Origin: Candidatus Saccharimonadota bacterium
Lineage (GTDB): Bacteria; Patescibacteriota; Saccharimonadia; Saccharimonadales; Saccharimonadaceae
DNA length: 32,000 nt
Assembly: GCF_025273655.1 (NCBI RefSeq)
Contig: NZ_CP045921.1
Location: forward strand, 990,001-1,022,000
Reading direction: 5' to 3'
Shown here: positions 1,895 to 29,204 of the stretch, one piece after another
Layout of the letters: every line of letters starts with the position of its first letter
How positions within the stretch are numbered: position 1 is the first letter of the stretch
Made by a program: the position numbers and the translations under genes
Notes under the pieces: model-generated
Told to the model about the DNA's origin: nothing
Seen by the model: the letters and a program-made list of their open reading frames with translations, nothing else
The model's database searches: none

Positions 1895-1927
1895 AAAATC
1901 GCCCCGTACTTGGACACGGGGCGATTT
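1895..1927 (-). terminator. Rho-independent terminator of the surface-protein gene ending at 1943
   Basis: A perfect 10-bp stem, atcgccccgt (1898-1907) / acggggcgat (1916-1925), is extendable by A/T pairs. On the minus strand it is followed by TTTTGATAT. Confidence 0.7.
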
Positions 1928-1942
1928 ATGCATGCTAGGATA

Positions 1943-2965
1943 CTAGCGGCCGCGGCCGGTGCTGGTGCCTGGTTTGCGGTTTTTGCTCTTTCGTACGATA
2001 AACCAGATGAGCAGGCCGATCAGGATGAGCACTATTACTAACGCGACAAGCGCCAAGATGATGTAGAGCTGTGGAATCACCCAAAACGAACGCGTTTGCT
2101 CGATTGTCTGGTTTTTGGTGCCATAGGTAAACGTAGCATGAACTTCGTATTTGCCAAATGTACCGATGTTTTTGAGTGGTACATCCCAGCGGCGATTGCT
2201 GTCTGGCAGCACCATTTCGCGTGGCACTTTTTGATTGAAATCTGCCTCGTAGACTACCTTGCTACCGTTTTTCACCGATACTTTGCCAAACGGAGACAAG
2301 TGCACGTCACCGTCGTTGTGGAAGCGGAACGATGCCTGGATGTTGTCTGGCGTAGTGAAGTATGTCTTGTTGGCACCGTCTTGCTGCAAGTCGAAGTTTG
2401 TCAGCGTGAGGTTCTGCGTCACATTTCCTGGGACGGTTGCAAGTACAATACTTGCTACGCTAGCGCTCAGGTTTACCTGACCACCGCTATCTGGCGTGGT
2501 CGGTGCGAAGCGTACTGCACCGAAGTAACCGCCCGGTTTTGCGTCGCGTGGAGCGTTGAAGGTAACTTCTACTACCTGAGTCTTCTTTGCTGGAATACTA
2601 AAGTTGGCAAGTGGCGCCATAAAGCGTTTGAGACTGTGGCTTCCCGCATACTTATCTGCATCAAGGATAAGAGCTGGCGTACCACGCTCGTCACCGGATA
2701 CAAAGTCGTTCGCGAGAGGCTTGACGTCGATCTGTGCACCGGTGAGGTTGGTCACAACCATTTTGATCGTCTTGCTCTCGCCCGGCTTGAGCTCTATATC
2801 GCTGCGCACTGGCGACACCTTGAGCGTATTGGCTGTCGCCGCATGCGCATGTTGCACCTGCACACTCGCTGCTACAAATGCAGCCAGCACCACCATGGCC
2901 ACAACACTAATGATCGTACGTACGTTTGTCTGAATTTGTTGTTTTAACACACCTTTGTTTCCCAT
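1943..2965 (-). CDS. Surface-locus protein A1: signal peptide, Ig-like beta-rich ectodomain, C-terminal TM anchor with basic tail (CscA/DUF916-DUF3324-like topology)
   Basis: The N-terminal signal peptide is ...VAASVQVQHAHA. The C-terminal TM is LYIILALVALVIVLILIGLLIWFIV, followed by RKSKNRKPG. It is a clear paralogue of 5350..6393: shared blocks are L[KS][VI][ST]P after the signal peptide, PG[NE]V..NLTL..F, and N[DN]G[DN]V. The family assignment rests on motif and topology only. Confidence 0.7.
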   Translation of the reverse strand: MGNKGVLKQQIQTNVRTIISVVAMVVLAAFVAASVQVQHAHAATANTLKVSPVRSDIELKPGESKTIKMVVTNLTGAQIDVKPLANDFVSGDERGTPALILDADKYAGSHSLKRFMAPLANFSIPAKKTQVVEVTFNAPRDAKPGGYFGAVRFAPTTPDSGGQVNLSASVASIVLATVPGNVTQNLTLTNFDLQQDGANKTYFTTPDNIQASFRFHNDGDVHLSPFGKVSVKNGSKVVYEADFNQKVPREMVLPDSNRRWDVPLKNIGTFGKYEVHATFTYGTKNQTIEQTRSFWVIPQLYIILALVALVIVLILIGLLIWFIVRKSKNRKPGTSTGRGR

Positions 2966-3026
2966 TTACTAGAATTCTCTTCTAGCATACCAGATGTGCT
3001 TATGTTTGCCTATGGTAGAACATGCA

Positions 3027-3055
3027 ATAACACCCCTCGCATGGAGGGGTGTTAT
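3027..3055 (-). terminator. Hairpin terminator downstream of gene 3074..4240
   Basis: A perfect 12-bp stem, ataacacccctc / gaggggtgttat, has a 5-nt loop (gcatg). The T-tract on the minus strand is only moderate (TTGCATGTTCT). Confidence 0.55.
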
Positions 3056-3073
3056 ATCGAGACTTATCGTAGA

Positions 3074-4240
3074 CTAGAACTTACCAGTTGCAATGAGGCT
3101 TAGGGCGGCCGAGTAGCTACCAGCCGGAGTGTTGTTGGCTGCTTTCGCGCCGAATGTCAGCTCCATGTTCTTGTTGAGGGCTGGTGCGCCAGCAGTGTTC
3201 AGGAAGTCATCGCCATACACGCTTGTTACGCCAGTAGCGTTCCCGCTCAGATAATTCATGCGGTAGTTACTTGTATTGTAGTTGGCGTTTGCCGCTGCAT
3301 AGGCACCATCGGAAACCGTACCATTGGTTGCCGTTGCAAGCTTAACGCCAAACTTGGCACCCGCATCCGCATCTAGCACATCACTCAGGAGTGCAGGAGC
3401 GATGCCACAACCTGTCGTATTATCCGTAGCACCGGCACGAACAAGGCCACCACAGTCTGTCGCGCTACTCTTAAGTCGCACGACTGCACCGCTTGCCGCG
3501 TTGGTAGTGATTTGAGTATGCACACTACCGGTACTTACCTCATCTGACTGCAAGGCGACCACGCCATTGCCAAGATCTTTGCCAAGTTTCAATGTTGGTG
3601 CAGTAAGGGCTGGTGCACTAGGACCACCACCTACACACCCATCATCAATTGCTTCACCAGAGATGCAGAAGGTCAGACTTTCAAGCACATCACCCGATAC
3701 TGCGATGCCATCAGTGATAGCAAGTGCCACAGAGCCTGTATCGCGAGGAGAGCCAATAGTGTCACCGTCAGTATAAGCTGTATCACCAGTACCATATGTC
3801 AAGATACGAGCATACAATGCATCTTCAGATGTAGATGGGTTTGTGATACCTGTAATTGTAAAGTTCAATGTTTGACCAGCAGTAGATGCCACGGTCTTCG
3901 TCACCACCACTTTACTTGCTGTAGCGCTACCGAGTGAGTAGCCTGATGTCGAGACGCCTGCACCACTAGCGCTAAAACCGGTTGGGGCATCACACGTCTG
4001 ACCAATCAATGGGCTATTTTTACAAAAATCGAGCACAATTGTCTCCGCACCTGCGGTTGGAGCTGTAAACTCAACGCCATAAGAGACACTTGTAGCGCTC
4101 TTTGTCGAGCTACTCAACTGAATCGAGCGATCCTCTAGCTGCGCAGCATTAGCCATAACTGGCACGAAGACCGAAAAAGCCACCAGCAGCGCTGCCACGA
4201 CGTATCGTGATTTATCACTAATAATTCTCAAGGTATTCAT
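3074..4240 (-). CDS. Secreted beta-rich surface/fibre-family protein, paralogue 1
   Basis: The signal peptide ends ...VPVMANA|AQLEDRSIQLSSS. It is Thr/Ser/Gly/Ala-rich with paired Cys loops (LDFCKNSPLIGQTCDAP; LTFCISGEAIDDGCVGG). The C-terminus is NTPAGSYSAALSLIATGKF. The ATG at 4240 follows GAGGAAGAG; the track's first codon is GTG at 4246. Confidence 0.8.
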   Translation of the reverse strand: MNTLRIISDKSRYVVAALLVAFSVFVPVMANAAQLEDRSIQLSSSTKSATSVSYGVEFTAPTAGAETIVLDFCKNSPLIGQTCDAPTGFSASGAGVSTSGYSLGSATASKVVVTKTVASTAGQTLNFTITGITNPSTSEDALYARILTYGTGDTAYTDGDTIGSPRDTGSVALAITDGIAVSGDVLESLTFCISGEAIDDGCVGGGPSAPALTAPTLKLGKDLGNGVVALQSDEVSTGSVHTQITTNAASGAVVRLKSSATDCGGLVRAGATDNTTGCGIAPALLSDVLDADAGAKFGVKLATATNGTVSDGAYAAANANYNTSNYRMNYLSGNATGVTSVYGDDFLNTAGAPALNKNMELTFGAKAANNTPAGSYSAALSLIATGKF

Positions 4241-4299
4241 ACCCACTCTTCCTCATTCCCCTCATTTTTAAGTTATTTGTTTTGTTTAGGAACGTCCTC

Positions 4300-4330
4300 A
4301 TTGTAACATGCTTATACTTATATCTGTCAA
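4300..4330 (-). promoter_or_regulatory. Putative sigma70-type promoter for gene 3074..4240
   Basis: The minus strand reads TTGACA (4330-4325), a 19-nt spacer, then TGtTACAAT, which is an extended -10 (hexamer 4305-4300). The spacer is slightly long. Confidence 0.4.
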
Positions 4331-4361
4331 CATGTTTTTTACGAACTAGATTTTCCGCAAA

Positions 4362-5297
4362 TTATTTCTTCGGCTTCACATCGTCGCGCTCACGCATCAT
4401 CTTGTGGCGGATAGAAACCATCTGGCTGCGGCGCCCAAGCCAATACGATGGGATGAGCAGTGCAATGCCGATGGCCGTAGGCACCCACATGATCGTCGGC
4501 TTCTCCACTACCTGTGTCTTCACCTCTTCTTTTGGCTGCTCCTGCGTGCCGTCTACCTGCCCGCTCGCTACCGCGACCAGCTGGAGAAACGCCGAGACAC
4601 CGTTGACATCTGTGACGGTGATATTGACGGTATAAATACCTGCTTTCTTGTACGTATGTGAAATATTCACGACACCTGCAAGCGCTTGACTCTTGAGCTC
4701 TGGTTTACCGCCATCGCCCCAGTCGATACTAAACGCGTACGGACCGGTACCACCCGTGAGCTGAAGTGGCCAAGTGAGCACATCGCCAGCAGCTGCCGAG
4801 CGCCGACCATACGAACTTGTGAGAGTAATGAGAGTGCCAAACGCGGTGAAATTGGTGGCGTTATACGTAATCGTGACGATGTTTGACACTGGACCCGCCT
4901 GCCCTAGATCGTCGTAAACGATAGCACTCAGCTCGTTGGTGCCAGAAAAGAGGCTCACTTGCAAACTAAAGCTCCCGCCGGCACACATCACTGCGCCCAC
5001 CATGACACCGTTGTTGTATACCTGCACCAGCAGACCCGTGGGGCAAATACCACTCACTGTCACCGGAGAGGTGGAGGTAGCGCCCCCGCCAGGTGTCGTA
5101 ATCGTGGCGCCCTGTGTAGGTGGCGCCTGCGTCTTGGTGGCTTGCAGGCCATATGAGCCCGGCTTAGGATTCGGCGTCGGAAGCGGATTGAGAGCGCTCA
5201 CCTGCCCCCCGTACACAAACACATTCAGCGCCAGCAGACACACGCCGACTAGAATCGACCGTGCCCACTGGTTGCTGAGTGTGAAGTACCGTATCAT
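4362..5297 (-). CDS. Membrane-anchored surface protein with Ig-like and PKD domains
   Basis: There is an N-terminal signal/TM segment (ILVGVCLLALNVFVYGG). The Ig-like segment is VTVSGICPTGLLVQVYNNG...GTNELSAIVYDDLGQAGP. The PKD signature is YAFSIDWGDGG...ISHTYKKAGIYTVNITVTDVNGVS. The C-terminal TM is MWVPTAIGIALLIPSYWLG, followed by a basic tail. Confidence 0.8.
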   Translation of the reverse strand: MIRYFTLSNQWARSILVGVCLLALNVFVYGGQVSALNPLPTPNPKPGSYGLQATKTQAPPTQGATITTPGGGATSTSPVTVSGICPTGLLVQVYNNGVMVGAVMCAGGSFSLQVSLFSGTNELSAIVYDDLGQAGPVSNIVTITYNATNFTAFGTLITLTSSYGRRSAAAGDVLTWPLQLTGGTGPYAFSIDWGDGGKPELKSQALAGVVNISHTYKKAGIYTVNITVTDVNGVSAFLQLVAVASGQVDGTQEQPKEEVKTQVVEKPTIMWVPTAIGIALLIPSYWLGRRSQMVSIRHKMMRERDDVKPKK

Positions 5298-5349
5298 GTT
5301 TGTGCTTATATCTTAGCGTGTTGATGCGCTAGTGTTCAAACGTTTTCTG

Positions 5350-6393
5350 TTATTTTTTGCGACTAGATTTCTTGCCGACTTTGCCGCGAACTGAGCTGTA
5401 GGCGCGATAGCCGAAGTAGGCGATCACAAGTAGCGCGAGGATGAAAACGATAATTGACCAGATAGGTGCATAGATGAACCAGCTACTTCCCAACAGATCT
5501 TGCGTACGGTTACCGTTTTGACCGTAGTACATGTCAAGGCTAAGGCGATAAAAGCCAGGCCAAAGACCAGAATTTGTACATTCCGTTGACTCTGCACTGC
5601 CACCCTCAAACTGTCTTTGATCATATTTGAGCGCCACACATGTAGTGTAGGTGCGCGTTTGACCTATGAGAGCAAGTGACTTATTGGGGTTAATTTCTGT
5701 AATTGTCTTGTCGTTGCCAAATAATGGCTTCACGGTGATACTTCCCGCTGGTGCCTCGGTTACGTTGCCGTTATTTTTGAGCGTATAGGCAATATTCCTT
5801 GGATCGTTCGTCGTAAAAGATGTGTAATTGGCAGAATTATTTTTGCCTGGAACATACGCACCAAATTTCTCTAGTGTCAGATTTTCCTTTACTTCACCTG
5901 GTATATTAACAAAGGCAAGCGTCACGCCAGAAGCATTAAGGCCCACATTGCCGCCATCTGGAGCGGCACCAGAAGAATATACAATCGCACTATAGTAGCT
6001 ACCTGCACCATGTTTGGCTGGTACTGCGATGCCCATATCTATAGTTTTGGAGCCTTTTGCAGGCACCGTCACGGTTTTTGGTACTGTCAGAAATGGCTTT
6101 GCAGACCAGGTTGTTTGCGGTGCATCCTCGGCAAGCATTAGCTTTGGCGTACCACCCTCATCAGTATACGTAAAGTCAACCACTCGGAGTGTTAAGTCAA
6201 GTTCTCGCTCTTGATCTAGGTTGCGGATAATCAGCGTATCCTTAGCAGACTTACCGGGCTCAATTGTGTAATTTTTCTTCGGCGTAATACTCAGCGCAGC
6301 AGAAGACACGGCAGCTGCCTGGTGATATGGCACAAGTGTCGCGCCCAATATTACGGCACATGCTGTCAACACTATGCTCTTCAAGCGTTTCAT
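5350..6393 (-). CDS. Surface-locus protein A2: signal peptide, Ig-like ectodomain, C-terminal TM anchor (paralogue of 1943..2965)
   Basis: The signal peptide is MKRLKSIVLTACAVILGATLVPYHQAAA. The C-terminal TM is IWSIIVFILALLVIAYFGY, followed by RAYSSVRGKVGKKSSRKK. Blocks are colinear with 1943..2965: SAIVYSSGAAPDGGNVGLNASGVTLAFVNIPGEVKENLTLEKF matches GAVRFAPTTPDSGGQVNLSASVASIVLATVPGNVTQNLTLTNF. Confidence 0.7.
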   Translation of the reverse strand: MKRLKSIVLTACAVILGATLVPYHQAAAVSSAALSITPKKNYTIEPGKSAKDTLIIRNLDQERELDLTLRVVDFTYTDEGGTPKLMLAEDAPQTTWSAKPFLTVPKTVTVPAKGSKTIDMGIAVPAKHGAGSYYSAIVYSSGAAPDGGNVGLNASGVTLAFVNIPGEVKENLTLEKFGAYVPGKNNSANYTSFTTNDPRNIAYTLKNNGNVTEAPAGSITVKPLFGNDKTITEINPNKSLALIGQTRTYTTCVALKYDQRQFEGGSAESTECTNSGLWPGFYRLSLDMYYGQNGNRTQDLLGSSWFIYAPIWSIIVFILALLVIAYFGYRAYSSVRGKVGKKSSRKK

Positions 6394-6469
6394 GTTTCTT
6401 TTGTTTCCCTCACATTTAACTTTTTAAATATAAGCGTATTGTACCATTTTGCCTCACTAAGGGCAATCT

Positions 6470-7549
6470 TTAAAACCGTCCGCTAGCAATATAATTGACG
6501 GAAGTAGCATATGCTCCCGGCCGTAATGTCGGGCTAGAGTTGAGAATGTAGCTCACCGTGAATTTCTTCATTAGGCTGACATTTGGTGAGTATGCAATTA
6601 TATCGCCGGACACAAACTTGTACTTATCTGGTTGAGAGTAGTCGCTGCTGGCTATAGCGTTTGCCCATTCACCCTCTGGGTTCTTGCCGATCTTTGGCTG
6701 AGTGTTCTCCACTAGATTGATACCAAATTGATTTATTCCCACCTGGCTCGCCGTCGGCTGCTCCAAGCCCCGTATCACGCTTGATCCAGCTGCCGGGGCC
6801 GAACCGTTGGCCGTAATCGCAAACCCGCCCGAGGCATTGGTGCCCACCGCCATCTGCGACTGTGCAAGCAATGTTGACTGCGAACTTAGATCCCCCATGT
6901 CAGTAAAGTAATTATCATTGGTGCCTGCACAGTTGTCATTCACTTCCTCTGCCATACAAAAGATAAGCATTGGCGGCACCTGTGTCTCCAGCTCAACACC
7001 ATGCTGTATCTGACTGCGGATACTACCGAAATCTATTTGTGAGCCACTAGCGTCCGTACTCGCATGGCTTCGCAGTCGTATCGAGAGTGCAGTATCTGTC
7101 TGAGTCGGATTGTGTATGTTGCTGAATGTATACGAAGACATGCCGTCGGTGATCGGTGCCGCGAGGCGCGAGAGCACTATATGATTCGCCGACTTCTGAG
7201 TGATATTAAAGCCTGTTTCACCAGTCTGATTGGTAAGTAGCGCTTGTGACGCGTCGATACCAGCTGGCGGATCACACGGGTGGTATGGAATCGGATCGTT
7301 ACATATCAGCATGTCTACCGACCCCACCGCCTGTGGGCTCATGAAACGAAACGACACAGTATAATCTGTAGTAGCCCCCGGCTCGTTGTCGCGGATATAC
7401 AAACTGCGATCTTGAAAGCGCATATCGGCAGATGCCGGCATGACAAATACAAAAAGTGCGAGTAGGAGTGCAACTCCCTCCATCCAGTGATGCATCCACG
7501 GATACACATGCACATGAAACCTAAACAACTTATGCTGCATGCATCTCAT
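6470..7549 (-). CDS. Secreted beta-rich surface/fibre-family protein, paralogue 2 (start uncertain)
   Basis: The signal peptide ends ...GVALLLALFVFVMPASA|DMRFQDRSLYIRD. Cys loops are MLICNDPIPYHPCDPP and LIFCMAEEVNDNCAGT. The core motif is INQFGINLVENTQPKIG. The C-terminus is RPGAYATSVNYIASGRF. The track ORF extends to 7726, but that extension overlaps the upstream gene and contains its terminator. Candidate ATG starts are at 7549, 7540, 7495 and 7483. Confidence 0.7.
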   Translation of the reverse strand: MRCMQHKLFRFHVHVYPWMHHWMEGVALLLALFVFVMPASADMRFQDRSLYIRDNEPGATTDYTVSFRFMSPQAVGSVDMLICNDPIPYHPCDPPAGIDASQALLTNQTGETGFNITQKSANHIVLSRLAAPITDGMSSYTFSNIHNPTQTDTALSIRLRSHASTDASGSQIDFGSIRSQIQHGVELETQVPPMLIFCMAEEVNDNCAGTNDNYFTDMGDLSSQSTLLAQSQMAVGTNASGGFAITANGSAPAAGSSVIRGLEQPTASQVGINQFGINLVENTQPKIGKNPEGEWANAIASSDYSQPDKYKFVSGDIIAYSPNVSLMKKFTVSYILNSSPTLRPGAYATSVNYIASGRF

Positions 7550-7585
7550 TGTACTAGATAGCAACATGAAAGCGTAGCACGACAG

Positions 7586-7616
7586 AAACAACCGACCCCT
7601 TTTGAGGCCGGTTGTT
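7586..7616 (-). terminator. Terminator of gene 7659..9260
   Basis: The minus strand reads CAACCGGCC-tcaaaag-GGTCGGTTG (one G:U pair), followed by TTTCTGTCG. Confidence 0.55.
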
Positions 7617-7658
7617 GTCTCGTACACTATTTTCTTGAGTGCTGGAGTACTGCTTTCT

Positions 7659-9260
7659 CTAGTACTGTGGAGCTGCCAAGTAATTGATCTTGGTAGTGTA
7701 GACACCGGCTGGGGTATCCGCACCAATGTTACCTACGTAGCGCATCTTTGCAGTTGCACATGAGATAACTCGTTCATTTTCTTGAGCAATTGGCTCTGGG
7801 ACTGTGATGCTAGTAGGGAGGAACTTGAATTGTGCTGTTCCTGCACCACCGCTACCGTTGTCTAGTGTACCGCGTGCATCTGCATAGTCTGCGCTAACTG
7901 GCTGAGCAGCTAGTGTATCAAATGGTGCTGAGCTCGTTTGTCCAGTTAGTGTAATAAATGGATAGCTAGTTGGGCTCTTGTAGCGTGTTGGTTCATTTGT
8001 CATCGCGTCAGCATAGCTACTAGAGAGTGTGTCACCACTATCTGCTCCAGCATTTGTCGTGACGGCTGGTACAAATCCAAGTCCAAACTGTTCAGTACCT
8101 GGTTTGCTCGTACCCTTAGTCGTCATAGGCGCAATTTTGTCACCGACGGTGTTGGCAAGCGTGTTACCTGAGTAGTAGACTGTTGCGCCACCAGATGAGT
8201 TGGAGCTGAGGCGCCAGTATGAGCTAACATCCCAACCTCTACCTGTCTCAAGTGAGTTCTCTGCCGCCGGATTACCGAGGTTGAGGCGGTTGTTGTTGAG
8301 CTGAGTGATCGAATCACAGGTACCGTGGTCGTTCCATTGTGCCTTCACTACGGTGTCAGGATTCTGCGTACCTACTGAGAAAGCCATGGTTTCCAGGACC
8401 TTGGTAGTGATGTGGATCGAGTCAGTCATCACGTTCGCCACAGTCACACCACCATCGACAAGCGTGGAGTCGTCTTGAGTAGTATCGTCGTTATACGTGT
8501 TGATCTTGACGAAGAATGATCCGGCACCAGGGTTGGTGATGTAGTGACTCTCCGAAGCAGTAAACTGAATTTTCACACTAGCGTTTTGCGCAATCGACTG
8601 TCCAGTGGCGCTCGTAAGTGTAATAAAGTTGCTTTTGCCAGAGAGTCGTGAAGTCGCAGAGTTACCGTTGTTAAATGCAGTATCTTCCTTGTTTACAGCT
8701 GTCATGGTCCAGTCAGCTGCAGTAGTCTTCACACCGTTGATGCTGACCTGGAACTCACCTGCTCCCGGTGGCAGTCCTGTCGATTGAGTGAAGACATTTG
8801 CACCGTTCGTGATATCGAGGTCGCTTCGGTTATTTGGTTTTGCAGCTGCATTGGTTTCGCGATCAGTCGTCCGCTGATCACCAGTGTTGTTACCTGGTGA
8901 CTGGCAATAGCCTGCCGCCGTGGTGCAGTACTGGAATGTGAAGCCCTTGATAGTGGCCGTCGAGCTAGTTTTGAACGTAAATGTCTCGCCAGTCTTCATA
9001 CCATTTGGACCTGAACCAGCTGGTGCATATGTAGCTGGCACATTGCCGCCGGCTGCAGGGTTAGGCGCTGCTGTCGAATAGCCTGAGCCGTCAGTATCTA
9101 CGAAACCAGGGGCCGAGCTACTGAGCAACAGCGACCTGTCCGTCAGCGGGTTCAATGCGTCCGCGAAGGCAGGTACTGCCGGTACCAGCGCTGCCGCAAA
9201 AACGGCCGTAGCTGCACCAAGCATCGTCCCACGTCGAACGATCGACTTGAGTGTATACAT
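7659..9260 (-). CDS. Secreted beta-rich surface/fibre-family protein, paralogue 3 (largest, 533 aa)
   Basis: The ATG at 9260 is preceded by AAGGAG and an 8-nt spacer. The signal peptide ends ...ALVPAVPAFA|DALNPLTDRSLLLSSS. It has a Cys loop (FQYCTTAAGYCQSP) and the core motif TEQFGLGF. The C-terminus is TPAGVYTTKINYLAAPQY. The upstream 36 codons of the track ORF lack an SD and a signal peptide. Confidence 0.85.
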   Translation of the reverse strand: MYTLKSIVRRGTMLGAATAVFAAALVPAVPAFADALNPLTDRSLLLSSSAPGFVDTDGSGYSTAAPNPAAGGNVPATYAPAGSGPNGMKTGETFTFKTSSTATIKGFTFQYCTTAAGYCQSPGNNTGDQRTTDRETNAAAKPNNRSDLDITNGANVFTQSTGLPPGAGEFQVSINGVKTTAADWTMTAVNKEDTAFNNGNSATSRLSGKSNFITLTSATGQSIAQNASVKIQFTASESHYITNPGAGSFFVKINTYNDDTTQDDSTLVDGGVTVANVMTDSIHITTKVLETMAFSVGTQNPDTVVKAQWNDHGTCDSITQLNNNRLNLGNPAAENSLETGRGWDVSSYWRLSSNSSGGATVYYSGNTLANTVGDKIAPMTTKGTSKPGTEQFGLGFVPAVTTNAGADSGDTLSSSYADAMTNEPTRYKSPTSYPFITLTGQTSSAPFDTLAAQPVSADYADARGTLDNGSGGAGTAQFKFLPTSITVPEPIAQENERVISCATAKMRYVGNIGADTPAGVYTTKINYLAAPQY

Positions 9261-9415
9261 GTGTATATCTCCTTGTGTTTGTTTTATATTGTGGTGGTCC
9301 CTTTTAAGGGGGTACACGCGCATTTTACCATTAGCGTAAAGGTTTGCGCAAGTAGTTTTGTACAACATTTTTGCGGATTGCTATCTCTGAATGTGCACAA
9401 CCTGTGCATAAGTGA

Positions 9416-10186
9416 CTAGAATACCGGTATGACGACGGCCGAGAAATCGCTAGTGTAGTGGCCCGCCGGAGTACTATTGGAGACATTGATGATCATACTG
9501 ATGGTGTAGTCGGTCTGGCCTGACTCTTTGTCGCTGCGCGCCACTACGTCACCACTGTTGAACTTGAATAGGTTTGGCGTCCGGTAGGCTGGCTCTACTG
9601 TACCGAAGCTAGTCTGGTCTGACGGCACTTGTACAGGACTAGCGCCGATGTTGGGCGTGGTATTGGCGGCGAGATTGATACCGAACTGCTCTTTACCCGG
9701 CGTAGATGCGGTAGGTACTGCAGGAGATTTCATAGTGTAGTTACCAATCTTGGGCGGTGAACCAATGATCTGCAGCATGTAGCCGTTGCTGAGGTAGCTA
9801 CGAACTTTGACGGTACTGGTAGTGGTAGCCGTCTGATTGGTCTCTAGATACCCCAAGTGCGATTCGCCCGCTGCGACGATCACCTGGAGTGTAGGTTCGT
9901 CTGGTGTGACAGTACCAAAACTGGCGGTACTGGTCGGAGCCTTACTAACACCTGCTGCGGGATCACCTATAGTCGCACGGGCACAAATGTCGCCTGCACA
10001 GCTTTCTTCGGCCGTACTACTACCGAACTGGCTCTCTGTCATCTGGTAATTTGGTGAGGTGGATGTGACGGCCTGCACTGCCGGGGCGCCACCAACGGCA
10101 ACTACTCCTACGAGCAGCACAAGCAGTACACGATCCCAAAGTGTCTGTCTTTGCATAAGCGTTACAGTAGCCATTATCCCCCACAT
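9416..10186 (-). CDS. Secreted beta-rich surface/fibre-family protein, paralogue 4 (smallest; start uncertain)
   Basis: The signal peptide ends ...LLVLLVGVVAVGGAPAVQA|VTSTSPNYQMTESQFG. It has a Cys loop (EESCAGDICARA) and the core motif KEQFGINLAANTTPNIG, then LFKFNSGDVVA. The C-terminus is TPAGHYTSDFSAVVIPVF. Possible starts are TTG 10201 and ATG 10186, 10174 or 10156. None has a convincing SD. Confidence 0.7.
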   Translation of the reverse strand: MWGIMATVTLMQRQTLWDRVLLVLLVGVVAVGGAPAVQAVTSTSPNYQMTESQFGSSTAEESCAGDICARATIGDPAAGVSKAPTSTASFGTVTPDEPTLQVIVAAGESHLGYLETNQTATTTSTVKVRSYLSNGYMLQIIGSPPKIGNYTMKSPAVPTASTPGKEQFGINLAANTTPNIGASPVQVPSDQTSFGTVEPAYRTPNLFKFNSGDVVARSDKESGQTDYTISMIINVSNSTPAGHYTSDFSAVVIPVF

Positions 10187-10258
10187 ACGCCGAAAACTCA
10201 ACTGGCGCGACTAGGGTAAGTATGGTAGGCTAGACATAAGCAATTAACACCATACGCG

Positions 10259-11290
10259 ATGGAACCAGACAAAAACACCACTCCAGATACCGAGGGCAAC
10301 AAACCCAACAGCGACCAGCAGGCGCCAGCCGATGCATTGAGCCGCACACCCGAAGACCTAGAGCAAGAGGCGGCCACACAGAAGGCTGCCAGCGGCGTAG
10401 CAGACGAGCCAGCCGAGAAACCAGTCTCACCGCTCAAGCGGTTTATGCGACGTGTGAACGTCTATCTGCTGCTTTTCCTGCTGCTTGTAGTGGTGAGTGG
10501 TGTCGTGATCGCAGTGAATTACCTGAACAGCCAGAAGACATCGAATGTGACACCGGCCAGCACAGAACCAAACATCGCTAGCCAGAAGCTAACAGAAGAC
10601 GCGCTGAAGCAACTAGCCAATACTGACACCTCGGTAGGTAGCGCTTCGCAGACGCTTACGATTCAGGGCAATGCCATCATCGAGGGTCAGACGCTGATGC
10701 GCGGCAATCTGAATGTGGCGGGTAACTTCCAGAGCGGGGGACGTATCCAAGGTCCTAGCTTGACTATCTCCGGTGAGTCAAATCTGGGTACTGCGCAGAT
10801 CAATAGCTTGCAAGTAGCACAAAACGTCGCCATCCAGGGAGCCACGACCGTGCGTGACTTGAGTGTAGCGGGCGGCGCCACCTTCGCTGGAGCGGTGACG
10901 GCGTCACAAATTACTGTATCCAAACTAGTACTTAGTGGTAATTCATCGATCGAAATCCCTAATCACCTGGCTTTTACCGGACCAAATCCTGGCCGCGCAC
11001 CAAATGCTGGCGTACTCGGTGCAGGCGGCTCTGCTTCTGTCAGCGGTTCTGACTCGGCGGGTACAGTGAATATCAATACTGGTAACGGCCCAAGTGTGGG
11101 TTGCTTCGTGCGGGTTAATTTCAATCAGGCGTATGCTACATCGCCGCGCGTCATCATTAGCCCTATCGGCGCCGGGGCGGGCCTGAGCACCTACTACGTC
11201 GACCGAAACAATAGCGGCTTCAGTATCTGCGCAGCGAGCACACCACCGGCAAATTCGGCATTTGCATTTGACTACTTCGTGACAGGATAG
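10259..11290 (+). CDS. Type II membrane-anchored protein with extracellular beta-helix-like repeats and a possible H-type-lectin-like C-terminal domain
   Basis: The N-terminus (about 60 aa) is acidic and Pro-rich. A single TM (VNVYLLLFLLLVVVSGVVIAVNYL) follows. Next come short repeats of the G-x-hydrophobic type (IQGNAIIEGQTLMRGNLNVAGNFQSGGRIQGPSLTISG...). The C-terminus FVRVNFNQAYATSPRVIISP...NSGFSICAAS resembles the H-type lectin pattern. The domain calls are tentative. Confidence 0.75.
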   Translation: MEPDKNTTPDTEGNKPNSDQQAPADALSRTPEDLEQEAATQKAASGVADEPAEKPVSPLKRFMRRVNVYLLLFLLLVVVSGVVIAVNYLNSQKTSNVTPASTEPNIASQKLTEDALKQLANTDTSVGSASQTLTIQGNAIIEGQTLMRGNLNVAGNFQSGGRIQGPSLTISGESNLGTAQINSLQVAQNVAIQGATTVRDLSVAGGATFAGAVTASQITVSKLVLSGNSSIEIPNHLAFTGPNPGRAPNAGVLGAGGSASVSGSDSAGTVNINTGNGPSVGCFVRVNFNQAYATSPRVIISPIGAGAGLSTYYVDRNNSGFSICAASTPPANSAFAFDYFVTG

Positions 11291-20938: not shown

Positions 20939-21541
20939 TTATTTTGAACCTTTGTACTGATCAATCGACTGCGCGACCTTGCCATCTGGTTTGATGTTTT
21001 CGTAAAACAAGACCTGATCTTTACTGATCACCATAGCATCTTCAGGGCCGTGAATCTCGTCGCCAAGCTTGATAAGTTGCACCTTACTCTGATCTTGGTT
21101 CTGCTTGTCGGTTGTCTGTTGTGGATTACTCTGATCTTGAGTGGCTGTCTGCTGACTCTGGAGGTAATAGATATCTGTCAGTTTGAGGTATTCACCATTC
21201 AGTGTCTGGAGTTTACCAAAATACACTTGCCCATTCGTGAAGAACACCGCTTGGTACTTGTCGCTGTCGATAGCAGGTGAACCAGTACCTCCGGGCTTGA
21301 ACCAGGCAAACCAGGCAGTGACCAGGAGTGCTATCACGAGTAGCACTGTGATAATTGGCCATACGATACGCATAACACCTTTTTTTGACTCTGGTGGGCG
21401 CTGGGTAGAACCGCGATATACAGATTTGGCCTCTTCTCGTACGGGTTGTGGCTCCTCCGACTGATGATGTGTTTGCGAAGATGGCGCGGCTGCAGCTCTC
21501 CGTTCTGTCGGCCGTGACCCACGAATTGGTCCCACATCCAT
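20939..21541 (-). CDS. Single-pass membrane protein of unknown function with a Gln/Thr-rich linker
   Basis: The ATG at 21541 is preceded by GGGAG. A basic, disordered N-terminus is followed by a TM helix (IVWPIITVLLVIALLVTAWFAWF). The extracytoplasmic domain is YQAVFFTNGQVYFGKLQTLNGEYLKLTDIYYLQ...VQLIKLGDEIHGPEDAMVISKDQVLFYENI. Confidence 0.7.
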   Translation of the reverse strand: MDVGPIRGSRPTERRAAAAPSSQTHHQSEEPQPVREEAKSVYRGSTQRPPESKKGVMRIVWPIITVLLVIALLVTAWFAWFKPGGTGSPAIDSDKYQAVFFTNGQVYFGKLQTLNGEYLKLTDIYYLQSQQTATQDQSNPQQTTDKQNQDQSKVQLIKLGDEIHGPEDAMVISKDQVLFYENIKPDGKVAQSIDQYKGSK

Positions 21542-21667
21542 GTGTATTTTTTCTCCCGTAAACTTATGCCTATCTATTGTTACCTATCATACCATAAGAG
21601 GCTTTGCGAGCACAATCACTGAAAGTACTACCCGTGATACAAATACGATATCCAGGGCAGTATCTGA

Positions 21668-21691
21668 CATAGGTACACCGGTGTACCTATG
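21668..21691. repeat. Perfect 24-bp palindrome
   Basis: cataggtacaccggtgtacctatg is its own reverse complement. It lies in the non-coding gap at the compositional boundary. Confidence 0.9.
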
Positions 21692-21715
21692 AAAAAACAC
21701 CCTCTAAGGGGGTGT
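21692..21715 (-). terminator. Rho-independent terminator (minus strand)
   Basis: The minus strand reads ACACCC-ccttaga-GGGTGT followed by TTTTTTC. Confidence 0.6.
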
Positions 21716-21836
21716 CATTTCATGGCTCCCCATACAGGTCACGGAACTATTACAGGGGTCGGAGGATACAAAACGAGACAAATGAGACACGAAACGGCAT
21801 ATCTGAGCAATGTCTCATTTTATGACTTTTATTAGC

Positions 21837-21864
21837 AAAAGAGGCTCAAATTGAGCCTCTTTTT
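21837..21864. terminator. Bidirectional terminator directly after the hsp20 stop
   Basis: aaaaGAGGCTCAaatTGAGCCTCttttt has flanking A4 and T5 tracts. It lies 17 nt downstream of the stop at 21881. Confidence 0.75.
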
Positions 21865-21880
21865 AGCTAACTGCCTGGAC

Positions 21881-22306
21881 TTATTTCTTCTTCGCAGAAA
21901 TAGCAATTTTCTTTGGTTCAGGAAGTGGTGTAAGCGGTACGCTAACCTTCAATACCCCATCATCGAGATGTGCTTCGATCTTCTCAGCATCTGCTCTCTT
22001 AGGAAGGGCTATACGGCGATAAAAGCTACTCGAACTCTCACGCACAACATACTGTTTGCCTTTGTCCTCTTCTTTTTCATGCCTTTCAGCACTAATGACT
22101 AAAGCGCCATTCTCAACTTCGATATTTATATCCTTTTGTTCGAAGTTTGGCAGATGTGCTTCAACAATAAGGTTATTGTCTTTTGTGAAGACATCTGTAG
22201 TAGGGATTGTCACACCCTTTAGTTGAGAAGCCCAATCATCACCAAAGAACTGCTTTTGTAGTGCAGTTAGCTCTGCAAACGGATCCCATCTTACGAGATT
22301 ACTCAT
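21881..22306 (-). CDS. hsp20: Hsp20/alpha-crystallin family small heat-shock protein
   Basis: The N-terminus is WDPFAELTALQKQF. The alpha-crystallin domain is PTTDVFTKDNNLIVEAHLPNFEQKDINIEVENGALVISAERHEKEE...FYRRIALPKRADAEKIEAHLDDGVLKVSVP. The SD AAAGGAGA precedes the ATG. Confidence 0.93.
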   Translation of the reverse strand: MSNLVRWDPFAELTALQKQFFGDDWASQLKGVTIPTTDVFTKDNNLIVEAHLPNFEQKDINIEVENGALVISAERHEKEEDKGKQYVVRESSSSFYRRIALPKRADAEKIEAHLDDGVLKVSVPLTPLPEPKKIAISAKKK

Positions 22307-22368
22307 ATAATTCTCCTTTCATCATTAGTGTTAATGGTTTCCAGAGAAGCATAAAAGCTTCTATGTTC

Positions 22369-22397
22369 AGTATAGAAAATTAGCACTCTCATGTCAA
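22369..22397 (-). promoter_or_regulatory. Sigma70-type promoter of hsp20
   Basis: The minus strand reads TTGACA (22397-22392), a 17-nt spacer, then TATACT (22374-22369). This is near-consensus in both sequence and spacing, and lies about 60 nt upstream of the hsp20 ATG. Confidence 0.75.
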
Positions 22398-22406
22398 GAG
22401 TGCTAA
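22380..22406 (-). promoter_or_regulatory. CIRCE operator (HrcA binding site)
   Basis: TTAGCACTC-N9-GAGTGCTAA matches the CIRCE inverted-repeat consensus exactly. The -35 hexamer sits inside the 9-nt spacer. Confidence 0.9.
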
Positions 22407-22409
22407 TTA

Positions 22410-23858
22410 TTAAACTAGGCGTATTTTACGCTCACGGCTGTCTTTACGAACCTTTGCCATTTTCTTGTCTTCACCAAACTTGAAATCATAGTTTCGGATG
22501 AACTTTGGGACTGATTCATCGTTATCTCGCATAGGTATGAATACTCTAAGTAAGGGGTTCATTTCCCCAGACAATACCGGTATGCTTGTTGGCTTAACGA
22601 TACCGCTCTTGAGTGTGATCTCAGCTGGTACACTGCCCAGCATCAACTTATCGAAATATACGAGTACTGATTCACGCATATCACGGTTATAGAACTCGTC
22701 TTTTGGCTTGGTTGTTGATACTGTTGGTTCTTTAGGCTCTGCTTTAGGAATGTAGCCGTTCTTCATACGTTGTTCGACCAGTTTTCGTATTTCTTCTTCA
22801 CTTTCGTAAGCCCGCAAGCTTCCTGACAAGAATCCGAGCCTGTAACTTACACCAGCACTCATTACTCGCCAGTTAGTATCCTCCAGAGCCTTCTCTATGG
22901 CTTTATGCAGGTCTTTCTTGCTTTGGTACTCTTCACGTTCGTCTTTGGTATCAAGGCAGCTGAAATCTAGTGATACTTCACGACCAATCTGTGGATCGCC
23001 AAGCTTAAAGTCGCTATAGCCCTCTTTAGTAAAGATTGGCTCGAGTAACTCCTTGAGTTGGACTATTTTGAGCTTCTTTACCTGTTTAATACCGTCATGC
23101 ACATCAACATGCTGTACTTTATCCTCGGCTGTGGCATGAAGTTTCGCCATTCTTTCAAAGTGTCTCAGCTTCTGGTCGTATTTGAAGATCATATCTTTAT
23201 CGAAAACGAAGCGTTTACGGTCGAGTTCTAGGTAAGGATCAACGGGTTCGGGCTCTTTCTTATCAGAGGATAGATCAAGTGTATCTGTTTTAACGTGCTT
23301 ACATTTCTCGCAGGTCTCAGTCCATGTAATAACATCGAACTCTTTGGTGGTCTTTGAGGTCGTATTACCACCGCATTTCTCACATTCATGCTTTGCACCT
23401 TCCCACTGCGTACCGTCTTCCCAAAGAGCCATACGCTTATTGCATTCTACGCATTCAAACATGATTAGGATGTCATCATCTTTGCGGCTATCACGGCGCA
23501 TATAGTCTTTGCTGATAACTCGCATGTCTTTACCGCAACTACGACAGTAAGTACCGCCTGAGATATGTGCTGAGGCTAAGCGGTTGTCTTTCTTCTCATC
23601 TTCCGCCACCCATTTTGCGATAGTAGCCTCCCGATTTTCAGCTCGTTCGGCTGCTGCCGATTCAACAAACCAAAAATAGTACAGGCTATACTGCAGATAC
23701 CAACCCGGCAACTTTTCAGTCAGCTCCTTTTTGGGGAGCTTCTTTTCCATGATCTTGAACGTATCATTTACGATTCGCTCACCGGAACGGCATTTGACTA
23801 CGGTACCGTCATCATAACGATCTTCGTAATACTTTTTGTCTTTTAGGTTCGTATACAT
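22410..23858 (-). CDS. Hypothetical protein with two CxxC...CxxC zinc-ribbon modules (cassette gene 4)
   Basis: The 482-aa protein has two cysteine quartets: C105-x2-C108...C136-x2-C139 and C159-x2-C162...C183-x2-C186 (YCRSCGKDM...ECVECNKRM; ECEKCGGN...TCEKCKHV). The remainder is charged, mixed alpha/beta sequence with no motif I recognise. Confidence 0.8.
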   Translation of the reverse strand: MYTNLKDKKYYEDRYDDGTVVKCRSGERIVNDTFKIMEKKLPKKELTEKLPGWYLQYSLYYFWFVESAAAERAENREATIAKWVAEDEKKDNRLASAHISGGTYCRSCGKDMRVISKDYMRRDSRKDDDILIMFECVECNKRMALWEDGTQWEGAKHECEKCGGNTTSKTTKEFDVITWTETCEKCKHVKTDTLDLSSDKKEPEPVDPYLELDRKRFVFDKDMIFKYDQKLRHFERMAKLHATAEDKVQHVDVHDGIKQVKKLKIVQLKELLEPIFTKEGYSDFKLGDPQIGREVSLDFSCLDTKDEREEYQSKKDLHKAIEKALEDTNWRVMSAGVSYRLGFLSGSLRAYESEEEIRKLVEQRMKNGYIPKAEPKEPTVSTTKPKDEFYNRDMRESVLVYFDKLMLGSVPAEITLKSGIVKPTSIPVLSGEMNPLLRVFIPMRDNDESVPKFIRNYDFKFGEDKKMAKVRKDSRERKIRLV

Positions 23859-23876
23859 CTGTACTAAACTCCAACT

Positions 23877-24743
23877 CTAGCAAGTATTGTTAGTTCTTTG
23901 AGCAAGCTCAATTTTCTTAAAGATTAGACCATTGTGACTATTTAACCCACCACTACATTCGAGCAAATGGATCATGTCTTCCGTGTGCTTGTTAGCATTA
24001 GTAATCATATCCTCTATAGCCTCATCACCAACTTGCTCCACTCCAAGTATCCACACCGTTTCTTTCACGTAGTTCTGCGGATATATCTTCAGAACATGGT
24101 AATACTTACTAGAAACTTTTAGATACATGTGAATTACTTCTGCTAAAAGATCTAGCATTTCTTTTGCTGGTCGGAGATCATGTTTAAATTTGCGAGACAA
24201 AGTGTGCGTTACATATGTCATACCCTCCTCAGCCCTTTGACCAGTAGTAACTTTATAGTACTTACCGTCTTTTGGTTGGTGGAATGCAAAAGCCTGATAC
24301 GGTTCGACACGCTTTAAATATAGGTTAGATATTTTTGATAAGTGGTCTTTGGCCAAAGGAAATAACGGCTCAATGACTTTTTTCTCATCTTCACTAACCT
24401 TGTGTTCGTACTTGTCGTAATAATACGACTCGTAGTCTTCTATGTTTAAATCTCTAACTGATTCCAAATATGCGTTTGCAAGAGCTGGCTCCTGCCTTGA
24501 AAATAGTAAACGAAGATGTAAGAACATTGAGTCAACGCAGGAAAAGTATATTTGGAAGAATACAGCACAGGTATTACAGTTCCTGCCTTTAATATGCCCA
24601 TGACCAGCCTTAGAATTAGCCCATACTTCAACTAACACATTCGCTACAATCAGTTTCTCGACACACTCTCGGTATACATCTAAAAGATAGCGGTGAGTCT
24701 TTTCATCTCCGAAGAATTTTTCATTTATTTCTTCGACTTTCAT
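23877..24743 (-). CDS. Hypothetical helical protein (cassette gene 3)
   Basis: The ATG at 24743 lies 1 nt after the stop of the 1186-aa gene (TAA-C-ATG). The track's TTG at 24758 would overlap by 14 nt. The 288-aa protein has no signal peptide or TM helix and no recognisable catalytic motif. Confidence 0.75.
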   Translation of the reverse strand: MKVEEINEKFFGDEKTHRYLLDVYRECVEKLIVANVLVEVWANSKAGHGHIKGRNCNTCAVFFQIYFSCVDSMFLHLRLLFSRQEPALANAYLESVRDLNIEDYESYYYDKYEHKVSEDEKKVIEPLFPLAKDHLSKISNLYLKRVEPYQAFAFHQPKDGKYYKVTTGQRAEEGMTYVTHTLSRKFKHDLRPAKEMLDLLAEVIHMYLKVSSKYYHVLKIYPQNYVKETVWILGVEQVGDEAIEDMITNANKHTEDMIHLLECSGGLNSHNGLIFKKIELAQRTNNTC

Positions 24744-24744
24744 G

Positions 24745-27700
24745 TTAGTTTTCGTCAATGTCCTTCGCGTAAAGTGATGGGTAGGATGCCTTAAGTTTAT
24801 CGAGAACTGTTTTTGCTTCGCCTGTTTTAATTTGTCTTAAGATATCGTAGTGCAATTGAGGCTTGAACATCGGTTGGTAGCCTTCAGGGTATGACAAGAT
24901 GATCCTTAGCATCTCTAGGTATTTCTCATCACCAGCAAGTTCTTTGGCGGTAATAAGGAAGTCATCATTATAATGGTGGCTCCACCATGATGACCTCTCA
25001 AGCGTTTTATAATTCTCACTAATCCATGCTTGTTCGTTACGCGTTATTTTCTCCCATAATCGTAAGCTTTGTTCGGGACGTTCTTTGATTCGATCGTTTA
25101 CGAAGTAGGCAGCTCTGTTAAATGCTTCTCTAGTGTATCGGTCTGCAATCTTGTCTAGGTACTCAAAGGATAGATCAATATCCTCTTCGTAGTTACTGCC
25201 TTTCTTGGGGAGCGTCCAGAAGAACCATCCTATATGAGTCCTCGCCTCGTCGTTATCACTTTCAATTATCATGTTTAGCAGATCTTTAAATGGTTGATCG
25301 TCAAAGTTGTTAACTTTCTGGTACATATCTTCGCCAAAAAGCTTCTTAAAAGATTCATCAGTGAAAAAGTTTTTTCTAAAAAGAGCAAAAGAAATTAAAA
25401 GCGTGTATATATCATCCGTCTTCGCCTTATTGTCAATTAGCCCATATTGTTTGAAAACATGCATTGCCTGTTCTGTGGTCATGGTTCTAAAGCGGTGCAA
25501 GACTGCTTCTAAGTGGTGAAGTATGACCTTGTTATCGTATTTGTCGACTAATTCAAGTGATAGATTCTCGATATGATCGGAAAGCTCACGGGGTATGAAT
25601 CTCTTATCAGTTTTTGGCAGTACCGAGTGTCTGTTCTGCATTAGCGATGTCAATGGAATCATTCCTTGAGTAACAACGTATAGATTCTCGTCTTTGACTA
25701 GCTTCTCGGTCATTTGTGCAACTTCTTCTAGATGATCCTTACCTCGCATCGAAATTAGCGACGACAGGATCCATGCCACCCAACCCCGTACAGTTGTTAT
25801 GATTCTTGGATCCTCTTCACCGTTAAGAATCTTGAGATGATAGTTAGACTGGCCTTTTGGATCGTCAGGATCATTCTCAAGCTTGGGGTGCGAATCATTG
25901 ATAAATATACGTGCAATCTCTAGCGCTTCGTTAACAAATCCTTGCTTTGCTAAATGTTCACCAAACTGAACTGCAAGCTGTCGAGGGTAGTGCTCTGTGA
26001 GTCGTGCCTCAATACGGGAATTGTCGCCGCCCAACTCATCGTAGAGAACTGGTCGTACGAAATCCTGATATAACTTACCTATGAGCGCTTTGTTATCCTT
26101 GTCAACTTGTTCAATGCTTAGCCAGATTGCTGTTTGCTGGTTGCTGGTCAAAACATCCGATTTATTGATATCACGAAGTATCTTTAGCCCCGAATCATAA
26201 TCTCGCTCGATAACCTGTGCGATGGTTCGGCTAATATCGTACGAGTCAAACGAACCAAGTTCATGAGTGAATTCCTTGGTCTTAAGATAACTATTCAATA
26301 CTTCCACGCCTGTTTCAAATAGCTTAGTCGTCGGATCAGATGAAAGTAGTTGTATCATAATGCGGCCCACGTAGAAGCTGTGCCATACTTGTCGTTTACG
26401 GTATTCGGGGTTGTCCATCCATGAAACGATTGCTGAAAGTGCACGTTCATCGCCATCAAGAGCGAGCGAGGAGACGATCTGCTCAACAAACACGCTATAT
26501 GGTAGGGTGTATTTTTTTAGGAAAATATTTATTAATGACCATTTTTTATCATTAGATAAATCAGGATTTTTATCTCGTAGCATTTGAAAAATAAGTTCGT
26601 GCTTTGATGGAATTCCCTTTCGGGCAATGACTTGATTCTTCAGTATTTTTAACGCATCATCACTATGTTCACCGTCACTATACTCTTGCAGAACTATATG
26701 TAATGCAGCTCGATTCAAAAAATCAGGTCTATCTACTGATACATTTGAATCTTTTGAAATAAATCTTTCATTAACTAATTTCCAGGCCGATGTCTTATCG
26801 AAAGCATAATGTTCTTTCAAGGCGGGCTCGAGGACATGTTGAATATAGTGTCTGTCATTTAAGGTGAATTGATCCCCAGATTGGCTGACGCCCCCGCCCA
26901 TACCATCCCAACCATTATATGATCCACCGTAAATCTTAGCGTTTTGATACTGACCGACAATTATGTCGATTACTTCTTCAATCCTGTTGATGAAGTCGGC
27001 TGCGAGATACTTATATAAAATATTAAAAATCGGAGATGGGGTATATATATCATATTCACCGTCATCATCGATGAGATTAAAGTAAAGTGACACTAGCTCA
27101 ATAGATCTACCAATATATTCCTGATTTTTGGTTGCTTGGAAGTAATCAAATGTAAGCACTAGTAGCTTTGCTATTTCTACTTTTTCTTGTCGATCACTCC
27201 TATCATCAAGCTCGGTGTAGTCCACTCGTTTGTCCTTAAGGAATGCGTCGATGAAGTCATAAACCTGAGGCGAAAGATCAGAGTGCTCCTTTAGAATCAT
27301 TTCCATTGTTTGCATAGCGAACTCTGCCCGAAAATCATCGAATGCCGGATTAGTAAAAGCATCCGTATGACTAGCGAAGAGCCCTATTGTGTAGGCTGCA
27401 TTTTCTCGATCCTTTATATGATCTTTAAAATCGTAAACTACGCGGAACGAGTATTGTCGATCTATGATTTTTGACCATACGATATCCCAGTCAGCAAGCT
27501 TCAGTCCCTTCTGGCTAAATATCTCCTGGATAACAAAGTACATAAGGTCAGGCTGAATAGTCCACGCGCTAATATTTCGCTTAATTTGGTTCTCATCGTG
27601 GTTTTTTATATGTGTCAGAATACTTTTAAATTGTTGCGGGATGTCCGTCTGTCGTCTGTCGTATTCGACATTTTTATCTAGCTCGTTATCGTAGTAGTTA

Positions 27701-29195: not shown

Positions 29196-29204
29196 AATTT
29201 TAGC

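Follow-up and report, generated by a model that had tools for sequence, protein, structure and literature searches.

What do seven consecutive minus-strand genes, all with exported products, build on the surface of a Saccharibacterium? The genes occupy positions 1943-10201 of a 32,000-nucleotide stretch of contig NZ_CP045921.1 (positions 990,001 to 1,022,000 of the forward strand), and this whole stretch is called the window here. A reading made from the letters alone (the sequence-only reading) had proposed a surface-fibre locus of the WxL/Csc type or the chaperone type in a genome resembling those of the Candidate Phyla Radiation (CPR), and had named it a candidate for host attachment. We are confident that these genes make up the pam operon of the parasitic, ultra-small Saccharibacterium Candidatus Mycosynbacter amalyticus JR1, and that they encode an usher-less, chaperone-assisted pilus formed by donor-strand exchange in a monoderm CPR bacterium. 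The pam operon was described in a preprint by Troman et al. (bioRxiv 10.64898/2026.03.03.709456), referred to below as the preprint.

The identity of the locus was determined by exact-sequence look-up. The PamC, PamB, PamR, PamD, and PamA proteins of the window are identical to proteins of Ca. M. amalyticus, a 1.08-Mb genome, with the accessions given in Table 1. PamE shares a 90%-identity cluster with WP_260763285.1 and PamT with WP_260763289.1, and the annotated starts differ. In the preprint, the accessions WP_260763277, 280, 282, 284, 285, 287, and 289 are named PamC, PamB, PamR, PamD, PamE, PamA, and PamT, respectively. The five exact matches, the two shared clusters, and the accession names in the preprint together indicate that the window holds the type locus of the published system. 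The sequences, the gene order, and the neighbours (ATP synthase, a tail-fibre-like gene, and a nearby Mg transporter) are identical to those of the Pam system. Annotation models are also available. NCBIfam release 20 includes the Pam models NF058578, NF058579, and NF058581 (Pam_pilin_C, cutoff 55), and the equivalog models for PamT and PamR, as well as Pam_pilin_C, gave matches above the curated cutoff in the window. The locus is real and important, but it is already known, having been described before and being represented by models in annotation.

The open reading frames (ORFs) named by the sequence-only reading are all present at the coordinates that it gave, with paralogy and anchors as described. 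Each of the seven products starts with a hydrophobic signal-like segment, and the CPR-like genome was identified as Saccharibacteria by the protein identity look-up. The lengths required minor correction. The mechanical ORF list gives 340, 390, 311, 347, 418, 569, and 261 amino acids (aa) across 1943-10201, and the database lengths are 388 aa for PamB, 356 or 341 aa for PamE, and 246 or 256 aa for PamT rather than 261 aa. The 341-aa form of PamE and the 256-aa form of PamT, as read from the window, each have an exact match in the sequence collection; WP_260763285.1 is the 356-aa form of PamE and WP_260763289.1 is the 246-aa form of PamT.

Table 1 Features of the pam locus in the window, in order of position.
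Feature	Position	Strand	Description	Details
Terminator hairpin, operon end (after pamC)	1896..1927	-	13-bp stem, then UUUUGAU	z -4.8 vs shuffles
pamC	1943..2965	-	second membrane-anchored chaperone: DUF916 N-domain, second Ig domain, transmembrane segment	exact match WP_260763277.1
Terminator/attenuator hairpin after pamB	3027..3055	-	12-bp stem	z -3.9 vs shuffles
pamB	3074..4240	-	major pilin of the thin filament, 388 aa	exact match WP_260763280.1
Promoter-like element upstream of pamB	4300..4330	-	TTGACA-19 nt-TACAAT	putative, read from the sequence
pamR	4362..5297	-	RbmA-like PKD/FnIII protein with C-terminal anchor; proposed pilus terminator and membrane tether	exact match WP_260763282.1
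pamD	5350..6393	-	membrane-anchored two-Ig-domain chaperone, 347 aa	exact match WP_260763284.1; in all locus variants seen
pamE	6470..7540	-	minor base-proximal pilin	RefSeq 356 aa; 341-aa start at 7495 also plausible
Terminator/attenuator hairpin after pamA	7587..7616	-	13-bp GC-rich stem, then U-rich tail	z -4.4 vs shuffles
pamA	7659..9260	-	major pilin of the thick filament, 533 aa	exact match WP_260763287.1
pamT	9416..10186	-	single-domain tip pilin: acceptor C-terminal domain only, donor linker absent	256-aa form; RefSeq start 246 aa (9416-10156)
Tail-fibre-like gene	10259..11290	+	conserved neighbour, divergent from pamT	weak bactofilin and phage-spike matches

The product of this operon was visualized in the preprint through cryo-electron microscopy (cryo-EM). 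PamA, resolved at 2.8 Å, and PamB, resolved at 3.6 Å, each assemble into thin, extended filaments that are right-handed helices. Within these filaments, the open C-terminal immunoglobulin (Ig)-like domain of a subunit is completed by the inter-domain linker strand of its neighbour, which is donor-strand exchange. Two disulfide pairs were reported for PamA and three for PamB, and the cysteine counts in the window (4 in PamA and 6 in PamB) fit these numbers. By mass spectrometry, both pilins rank among the cell's most abundant proteins. From AlphaFold and Foldseek, the preprint further assigned PamC and PamD as FimC/PapD-like chaperones that stay anchored in the membrane, PamT as the tip, PamE as the proximal adaptor, and PamR as the terminator and membrane tether, with no need for an usher or a trans-envelope machine. 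The observed filaments and the predicted membrane-anchored chaperones bear out the chaperone-type surface fibre and its candidacy for host attachment.

The seven products are exported through Sec signal peptides, and assembly can be pictured from these models. PamC and PamD, the two-Ig chaperones held by a C-terminal membrane helix, would cap the open groove of each new pilin until strand exchange. PamT, having the acceptor domain only, would cap the distal tip, and PamE would serve as the base-proximal adaptor. PamR would donate its N-terminal strand, stop the growth, and tether the fibre by its C-terminal anchor. The function of the pilus is likely long-range contact with the envelope of the Gordonia host.

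The relationship among the pilins was examined at the sequence and fold levels. PamB aligns over its full length with PamE (BLASTP E 6e-19), and PamE is a paralogue of PamT (BLASTP E 3e-15). PamA is linked to the other secreted proteins weakly by BLAST (E about 0.01), and the Pam_pilin_C model is common to them, with scores of 156 bits for PamT, 149 bits for PamE, and 62 bits for PamA. The proposal of four paralogous secreted proteins is supported by these comparisons. PamT matched its own model, NF058579 (CPR_pilus_PamT), with 317.2 bits against a cutoff of 240. The AlphaFold2 model of PamT has a predicted local distance difference test (pLDDT) score of 81, rising above 90 in the C-terminal domain. 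When this model was compared with the PDB by Foldseek, CsuE, the PapG pilin domain, PapA, FimA, CfaB, Csu, TasA, and archaeal thread subunits were found, with a probability of 0.8-1.0 for most of the pilin matches. Searches of PDB sequences gave no match to a Pam pilin structure.

A DRS[LI]x[LI] motif was observed after the predicted signal-peptide cleavage site in PamA (DRSLLLSSS), PamB (DRSIQLSSS), and PamE (DRSLYIRDN); PamT is without it. The motif is the conserved first strand at the mature N-termini of the three pilins. In other CPR genomes, some proteins with the Pam C-terminal domain (among P0390-P0539 of alignment A2) carry N-terminal Laminin_G_3, CBM96, or ice-binding-like domains. 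By analogy with FimH, PapG, or the 'large WxL' proteins, these are likely lectin-type tip adhesins.

The two chaperones were compared in the same way. PamC and PamD are paralogues (BLASTP E 3e-25 over 325 residues), and each has a signal segment and a strong C-terminal transmembrane (TM) segment followed by a K/R-rich tail, in agreement with the two paralogous anchored proteins of about 340 aa described earlier from the letters. The PKD/Ig protein with a C-terminal anchor was likewise recognized correctly. It is PamR, which matched NF058578 with 389.8 bits (cutoff 300) and PKD_4 (PF18911) with an E-value of 5.6e-8, and which ends in a basic tail after a hydrophobic stretch weaker than those of PamC and PamD.

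The N-terminal domain of the chaperones leads outside the CPR. The Pfam model PF06030 (DUF916/WxLIP_PGBD) matched PamC with an E-value of 3.2e-5 and PamD with 2.4e-4; the bit scores of the window proteins, 24.4 and 21.6, are just under the gathering cutoff of 27.3. Most of the listed PamC orthologues of the CPR carry PF06030, and the database name of WP_260763277.1 is 'DUF916 domain-containing protein'. A tblastn search of 7.3 Gb of plasmids with PamC gave 8 matches, all of them (8/8) on DUF916-annotated genes. When the PamC family was aligned by hhalign with the WxL-interacting protein (WxLIP) of Enterococcus mundtii (cluster L001), the probability was 96.8% over the full length and 95.7% for domain 1, and the cross-domain controls gave 0.2%. 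Judged by these sequence and profile comparisons, the N-domain of PamC and PamD is homologous to the DUF916/WxL-interacting-protein lineage of the Firmicute WxL clusters. The second domain of PamC had no Pfam match to DUF3324 (PF11797), and hhalign of domain 2 against domain 2 gave 0.2%. An hmmsearch of PDB sequences with the PamC profile did not reach EfmWxLIP1, although the entry (9i1y) exists. A third genomic setting of DUF916, outside the Firmicutes and the CPR, was observed on a Streptomyces goshikiensis plasmid (L002, 7677-10554). It encodes a 317-aa DUF916-only protein (PF06030, E 5e-5), and two RTX-repeat proteins, each about 260 aa long, come after it.

Conservation of the locus was then measured across genomes. 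The profile of the pilin C-terminal domain collected 947 clusters at 50% identity, and a motif-based scan of GTDB species genomes found 371 genomes. Synteny was analyzed in the best 80 loci, and gene order was counted in the 57 species-level loci with enough flank. The exact order T-A-E-D-R-B-C is kept in 43/57 Saccharibacteria loci, and the remainder are variants. In 50/53 loci, the divergent tail-fibre-like gene stands upstream, next to pamT, and the ATP synthase genes lie on its far side. Homologues thus co-localise in other genomes with their order kept; the sequence-only reading had stated that it would fail if they never did. The preprint lists the tail-fibre-like gene as a central neighbour of pam and gives it no role. 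Its product in the window has 343 aa with an N-terminal TM segment, and its weak phage-spike match corresponds to a beta-helix.

The variant loci are informative about the organization of the operon. Minimal or variant loci without pamB-pamC, in the order T-(T or B)-E-chaperone-R, were observed at L069, L071, L078, and L080 (also L075 and L081), and these minimal loci still hold a PamC/D-type chaperone. The minimal loci without pamB-pamC point to this pair as an add-on, which suggests that pamB-pamC is an optional major-pilin and chaperone module on a core of T, pilin(s), E, a chaperone, and R. Pilin duplication was seen in other pam loci, with five PamB-like genes in L076. Full or partial pam loci were also present in metagenome-assembled genomes labelled Verrucomicrobiia, Sulfuriferula, Dongiaceae, Rhodoglobus, Nevskiaceae (a 562-kb contig), and Pristimantibacillus (L023, L032, L046, L049, L069, and L082). 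These six contigs are most likely mis-binned or mislabelled Saccharibacteria. For the Rhodoglobus (Actinomycetota) contig, an epibiont may have been binned together with its host.

The intergenic regions of the operon were examined for signals of gene dosage. GC-rich hairpins were found at all three places where terminators had been read from the letters (1895-1927, 3027-3055, and 7586-7616). Within about 100 nt 3' of the gene, a strong hairpin was present for pamA in 41/42 syntenic loci and for pamB in 32/42, and the other five pam genes have a strong 3' hairpin in 1 to 15 of 42 loci. Many of the conserved hairpins are shaped like intrinsic terminators, with an A-tract, a stem, and a U-tract. 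The hairpins were found by targeted folding of the intergenic regions. A generic promoter and terminator scan of the region was not above shuffles, and the 19-nt spacer of the element at 4300-4330 falls outside the range of that scan. The promoter proposed at this position (TTGACA and TACAAT) is plausible, and its spacer is non-optimal. The earlier suggestion of tuned subunit stoichiometry is supported by the conservation of hairpins after the two major pilin genes. By analogy with classical pilus operons, where a terminator hairpin also stands 3' of the major pilin gene, the hairpins after pamA and pamB probably raise the major-pilin transcript relative to the downstream genes and would fit a similar dosage mechanism. 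Major-pilin dosage in Pam operons may be set by these conserved terminators.

Three results go beyond the preprint: the DUF916 link to the Firmicute WxL clusters, the conserved hairpins after pamA and pamB, and pamB-pamC as an optional module. WxL, DUF916, and Csc are absent from the preprint, the hairpins are not discussed there, and an optional module is not mentioned in it. In a literature search, no paper was found that ties WxL or DUF916 to Pam or the CPR, and none that describes WxL proteins as pili.

The DUF916 link raises the question of whether the locus truly belongs with the Csc/WxL cell-surface complexes of Firmicutes, in which a WxLIP (DUF916-DUF3324-TM) scaffold keeps non-filamentous WxL proteins on the peptidoglycan. 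A WxL/Csc cluster, such as that of E. mundtii pLDW-8 (locus L001), is composed of at least two WxL-domain proteins (PF13731), a WxLIP with DUF916 (PF06030), DUF3324 (PF11797), and a TM segment, and a small LPXTG protein. The resemblance is considerable. WxLIP and PamC/PamD share the homologous DUF916 domain within the same architecture of signal peptide, DUF916 domain, second Ig domain, TM segment, and basic tail, and PamD and the E. mundtii WxLIP are both 347 aa long. The cluster logic is also parallel, with a small domain-only subunit, larger subunits with the domain at the C-terminus, and a TM-anchored two-Ig partner. In addition, UniRef (A0A857ML26) names PamA a 'WxL domain-containing protein', a name that the current Pfam WxL model does not return at E<=1. 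This name may be a legacy or borderline annotation that points independently to a WxL connection. The defining domain, however, is absent. PF13731 had no match at E<=1 in the four window pilins and none in 82 diverse relatives (0/82), and hhalign of the Pam C-terminal domain (PamT family; diverse profile) against the Enterococcus WxL profile was negative, with a probability of 0.1%. A WxL hidden Markov model (HMM) run against 3101 ORFs from pam loci showed no enrichment on the pilins. Its weak matches fell on PamC instead, and we suspect that they are due to hydrophobic segments. As had been noted from the letters, no paired WxL motifs and no LPXTG-like motif occur in any of the seven proteins. 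Among the Pfam families that the sequence-only reading had named, DUF916 was recovered, below the cutoff in the window, and WxL (PF13731) and DUF3324 were not.

The two systems differ in further respects. The second domain of the Pam chaperone is not recognizable as DUF3324, the Pam anchor is the TM-tethered PamR where the WxL/Csc anchor is an LPXTG protein, and the Pam set comprises four pilins and two chaperones. Descriptions of WxL proteins have them bound to peptidoglycan and non-filamentous, whereas the cryo-EM of the preprint shows Pam filaments. The chaperone and the N-domain of WxLIP are homologous and the two systems look analogous, but the domain that defines the WxL/Csc family is where membership fails. 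The earlier WxL/Csc comparison thus stands for the DUF916 N-domain and the parallel layout, and falls for the WxL domain, DUF3324, and the LPXTG protein. We consider true membership improbable. A deeper relationship is easier to entertain, although it is offered tentatively and is more doubtful than not. The Pam pili of the CPR and the WxL/Csc clusters of Firmicutes might be two branches of one ancient usher-less monoderm system, in which exported subunits have their open beta-sandwich completed by a two-Ig chaperone of the DUF916 type that is anchored in the membrane. AlphaFold predicts that a gap in the beta-sandwich of WxL is filled by a strand of WxLIP (Hassan et al. 2023), which is the same principle as the donor-strand complementation modelled for the Pam chaperone. 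No WxL domain structure was found in PDB searches. The AlphaFold2 model of a small Enterococcus WxL protein gave low-probability, mixed matches to the PDB by Foldseek (CBM29 and viral jelly rolls; FimG and CfaB at 0.4-0.5). If the shared ancestry were true, WxL proteins would depend on a chaperone and might be short fibres or oligomers formed by strand exchange, not simple peptidoglycan binders, and the Pam components would no longer be 'exclusive to CPR'.

Assembly by donor-strand exchange and the fold matches to Pap, Fim, and Csu subunits raise the different possibility of a classical Gram-negative chaperone-usher pilus operon. Judged by the structures and models of the preprint, chaperone-usher pili (Pap/Fim and the archaic Csu/CupE) and Pam have in common an incomplete Ig-like pilin domain completed by the strand of a neighbour, two-Ig-domain chaperones, a tip subunit without a donor strand, and a dedicated terminator subunit. 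Pam, in contrast, has no outer membrane and no usher, and the Pfam scan found no usher match in the seven genes. Its chaperones are TM-anchored instead of soluble, its filament is extended and not coiled, and its pilins have two domains with the internal linker as the donor strand in place of an N-terminal extension. There is no family membership at the sequence level, and a chaperone-usher operon can be given almost no weight. A monoderm-like envelope with beta-rich, Ig-like proteins would also suit a sortase-assembled pilus of the Gram-positive type, or unrelated surface adhesins that are merely adjacent. The seven proteins contain no LPXTG-like sorting signal and no sortase match, and both the strict synteny over dozens of species and the C-terminal domain common to the pilins make this explanation extremely unlikely.

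Pam pili can also be compared with TasA, the archaeal threads, and the pond fibril TLP-1a (PDB 9ikj), which are donor-strand beta-sandwich polymers without an usher. TLP-1a is a donor-strand fibril from pond water, from an unknown organism, found by CryoSeek (PMC11494351). It was the best Foldseek match of the PamT model, and a weak one (E 1e-3, TM-score 0.33-0.36). TLP-1a has no sequence similarity to Pam and differs from it in using an n+4 donor and forming an 8-nm tube.

Several points weigh against the assignment of the locus as a chaperone-assisted pam pilus or against parts of it. PamB scored 24 bits with Pam_pilin_C, under the cutoff of 55. The Foldseek E-values of the PamT model are modest, from 1e-3 to 5e-2, with TM-scores up to 0.5. 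The Pfam models PapD_N and PapD_C (PF00345 and PF02753) had no match to PamC or PamD, which tells also against a chaperone-usher operon. The assembly order, the chaperone role, and the terminator role of PamR are AlphaFold predictions, and the role of the pilus in host attachment is a putative one. The regulatory role of the hairpins is read solely from their position and conservation. Finally, the describing source is a preprint with peer review pending.

Outside the pam operon, a low-GC block was observed at 21500-32000 of the window, with a GC content of 0.39-0.44, where the rest has about 0.51. The minus strand encodes the R subunit of a type I restriction system at 29205-31907, reaching near the window end. 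Four co-directional ORFs without a Pfam match follow downstream, at 28302-29195, 24745-28305 (1186 aa), 23877-24758, and 22410-23858. The 297-aa ORF among them had a weak PADLOC match to LmuA (E 4e-5). The block is possibly a defence island, whether Lamassu-like or of another kind.

As a class of bacterial filament, Pam pili were recognised recently, and the credit for this belongs to the 2026 preprint (bioRxiv 10.64898/2026.03.03.709456). The conserved terminators could explain the dominance of the major pilins, and the minimal core locus could guide genetic dissection. The DUF916 chaperone domain provides a testable evolutionary bridge to WxL adhesion clusters, which are poorly understood and occur in enterococci, lactobacilli, and Listeria. 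For many Saccharibacteria, Pam pili are probably the first touch of the host.

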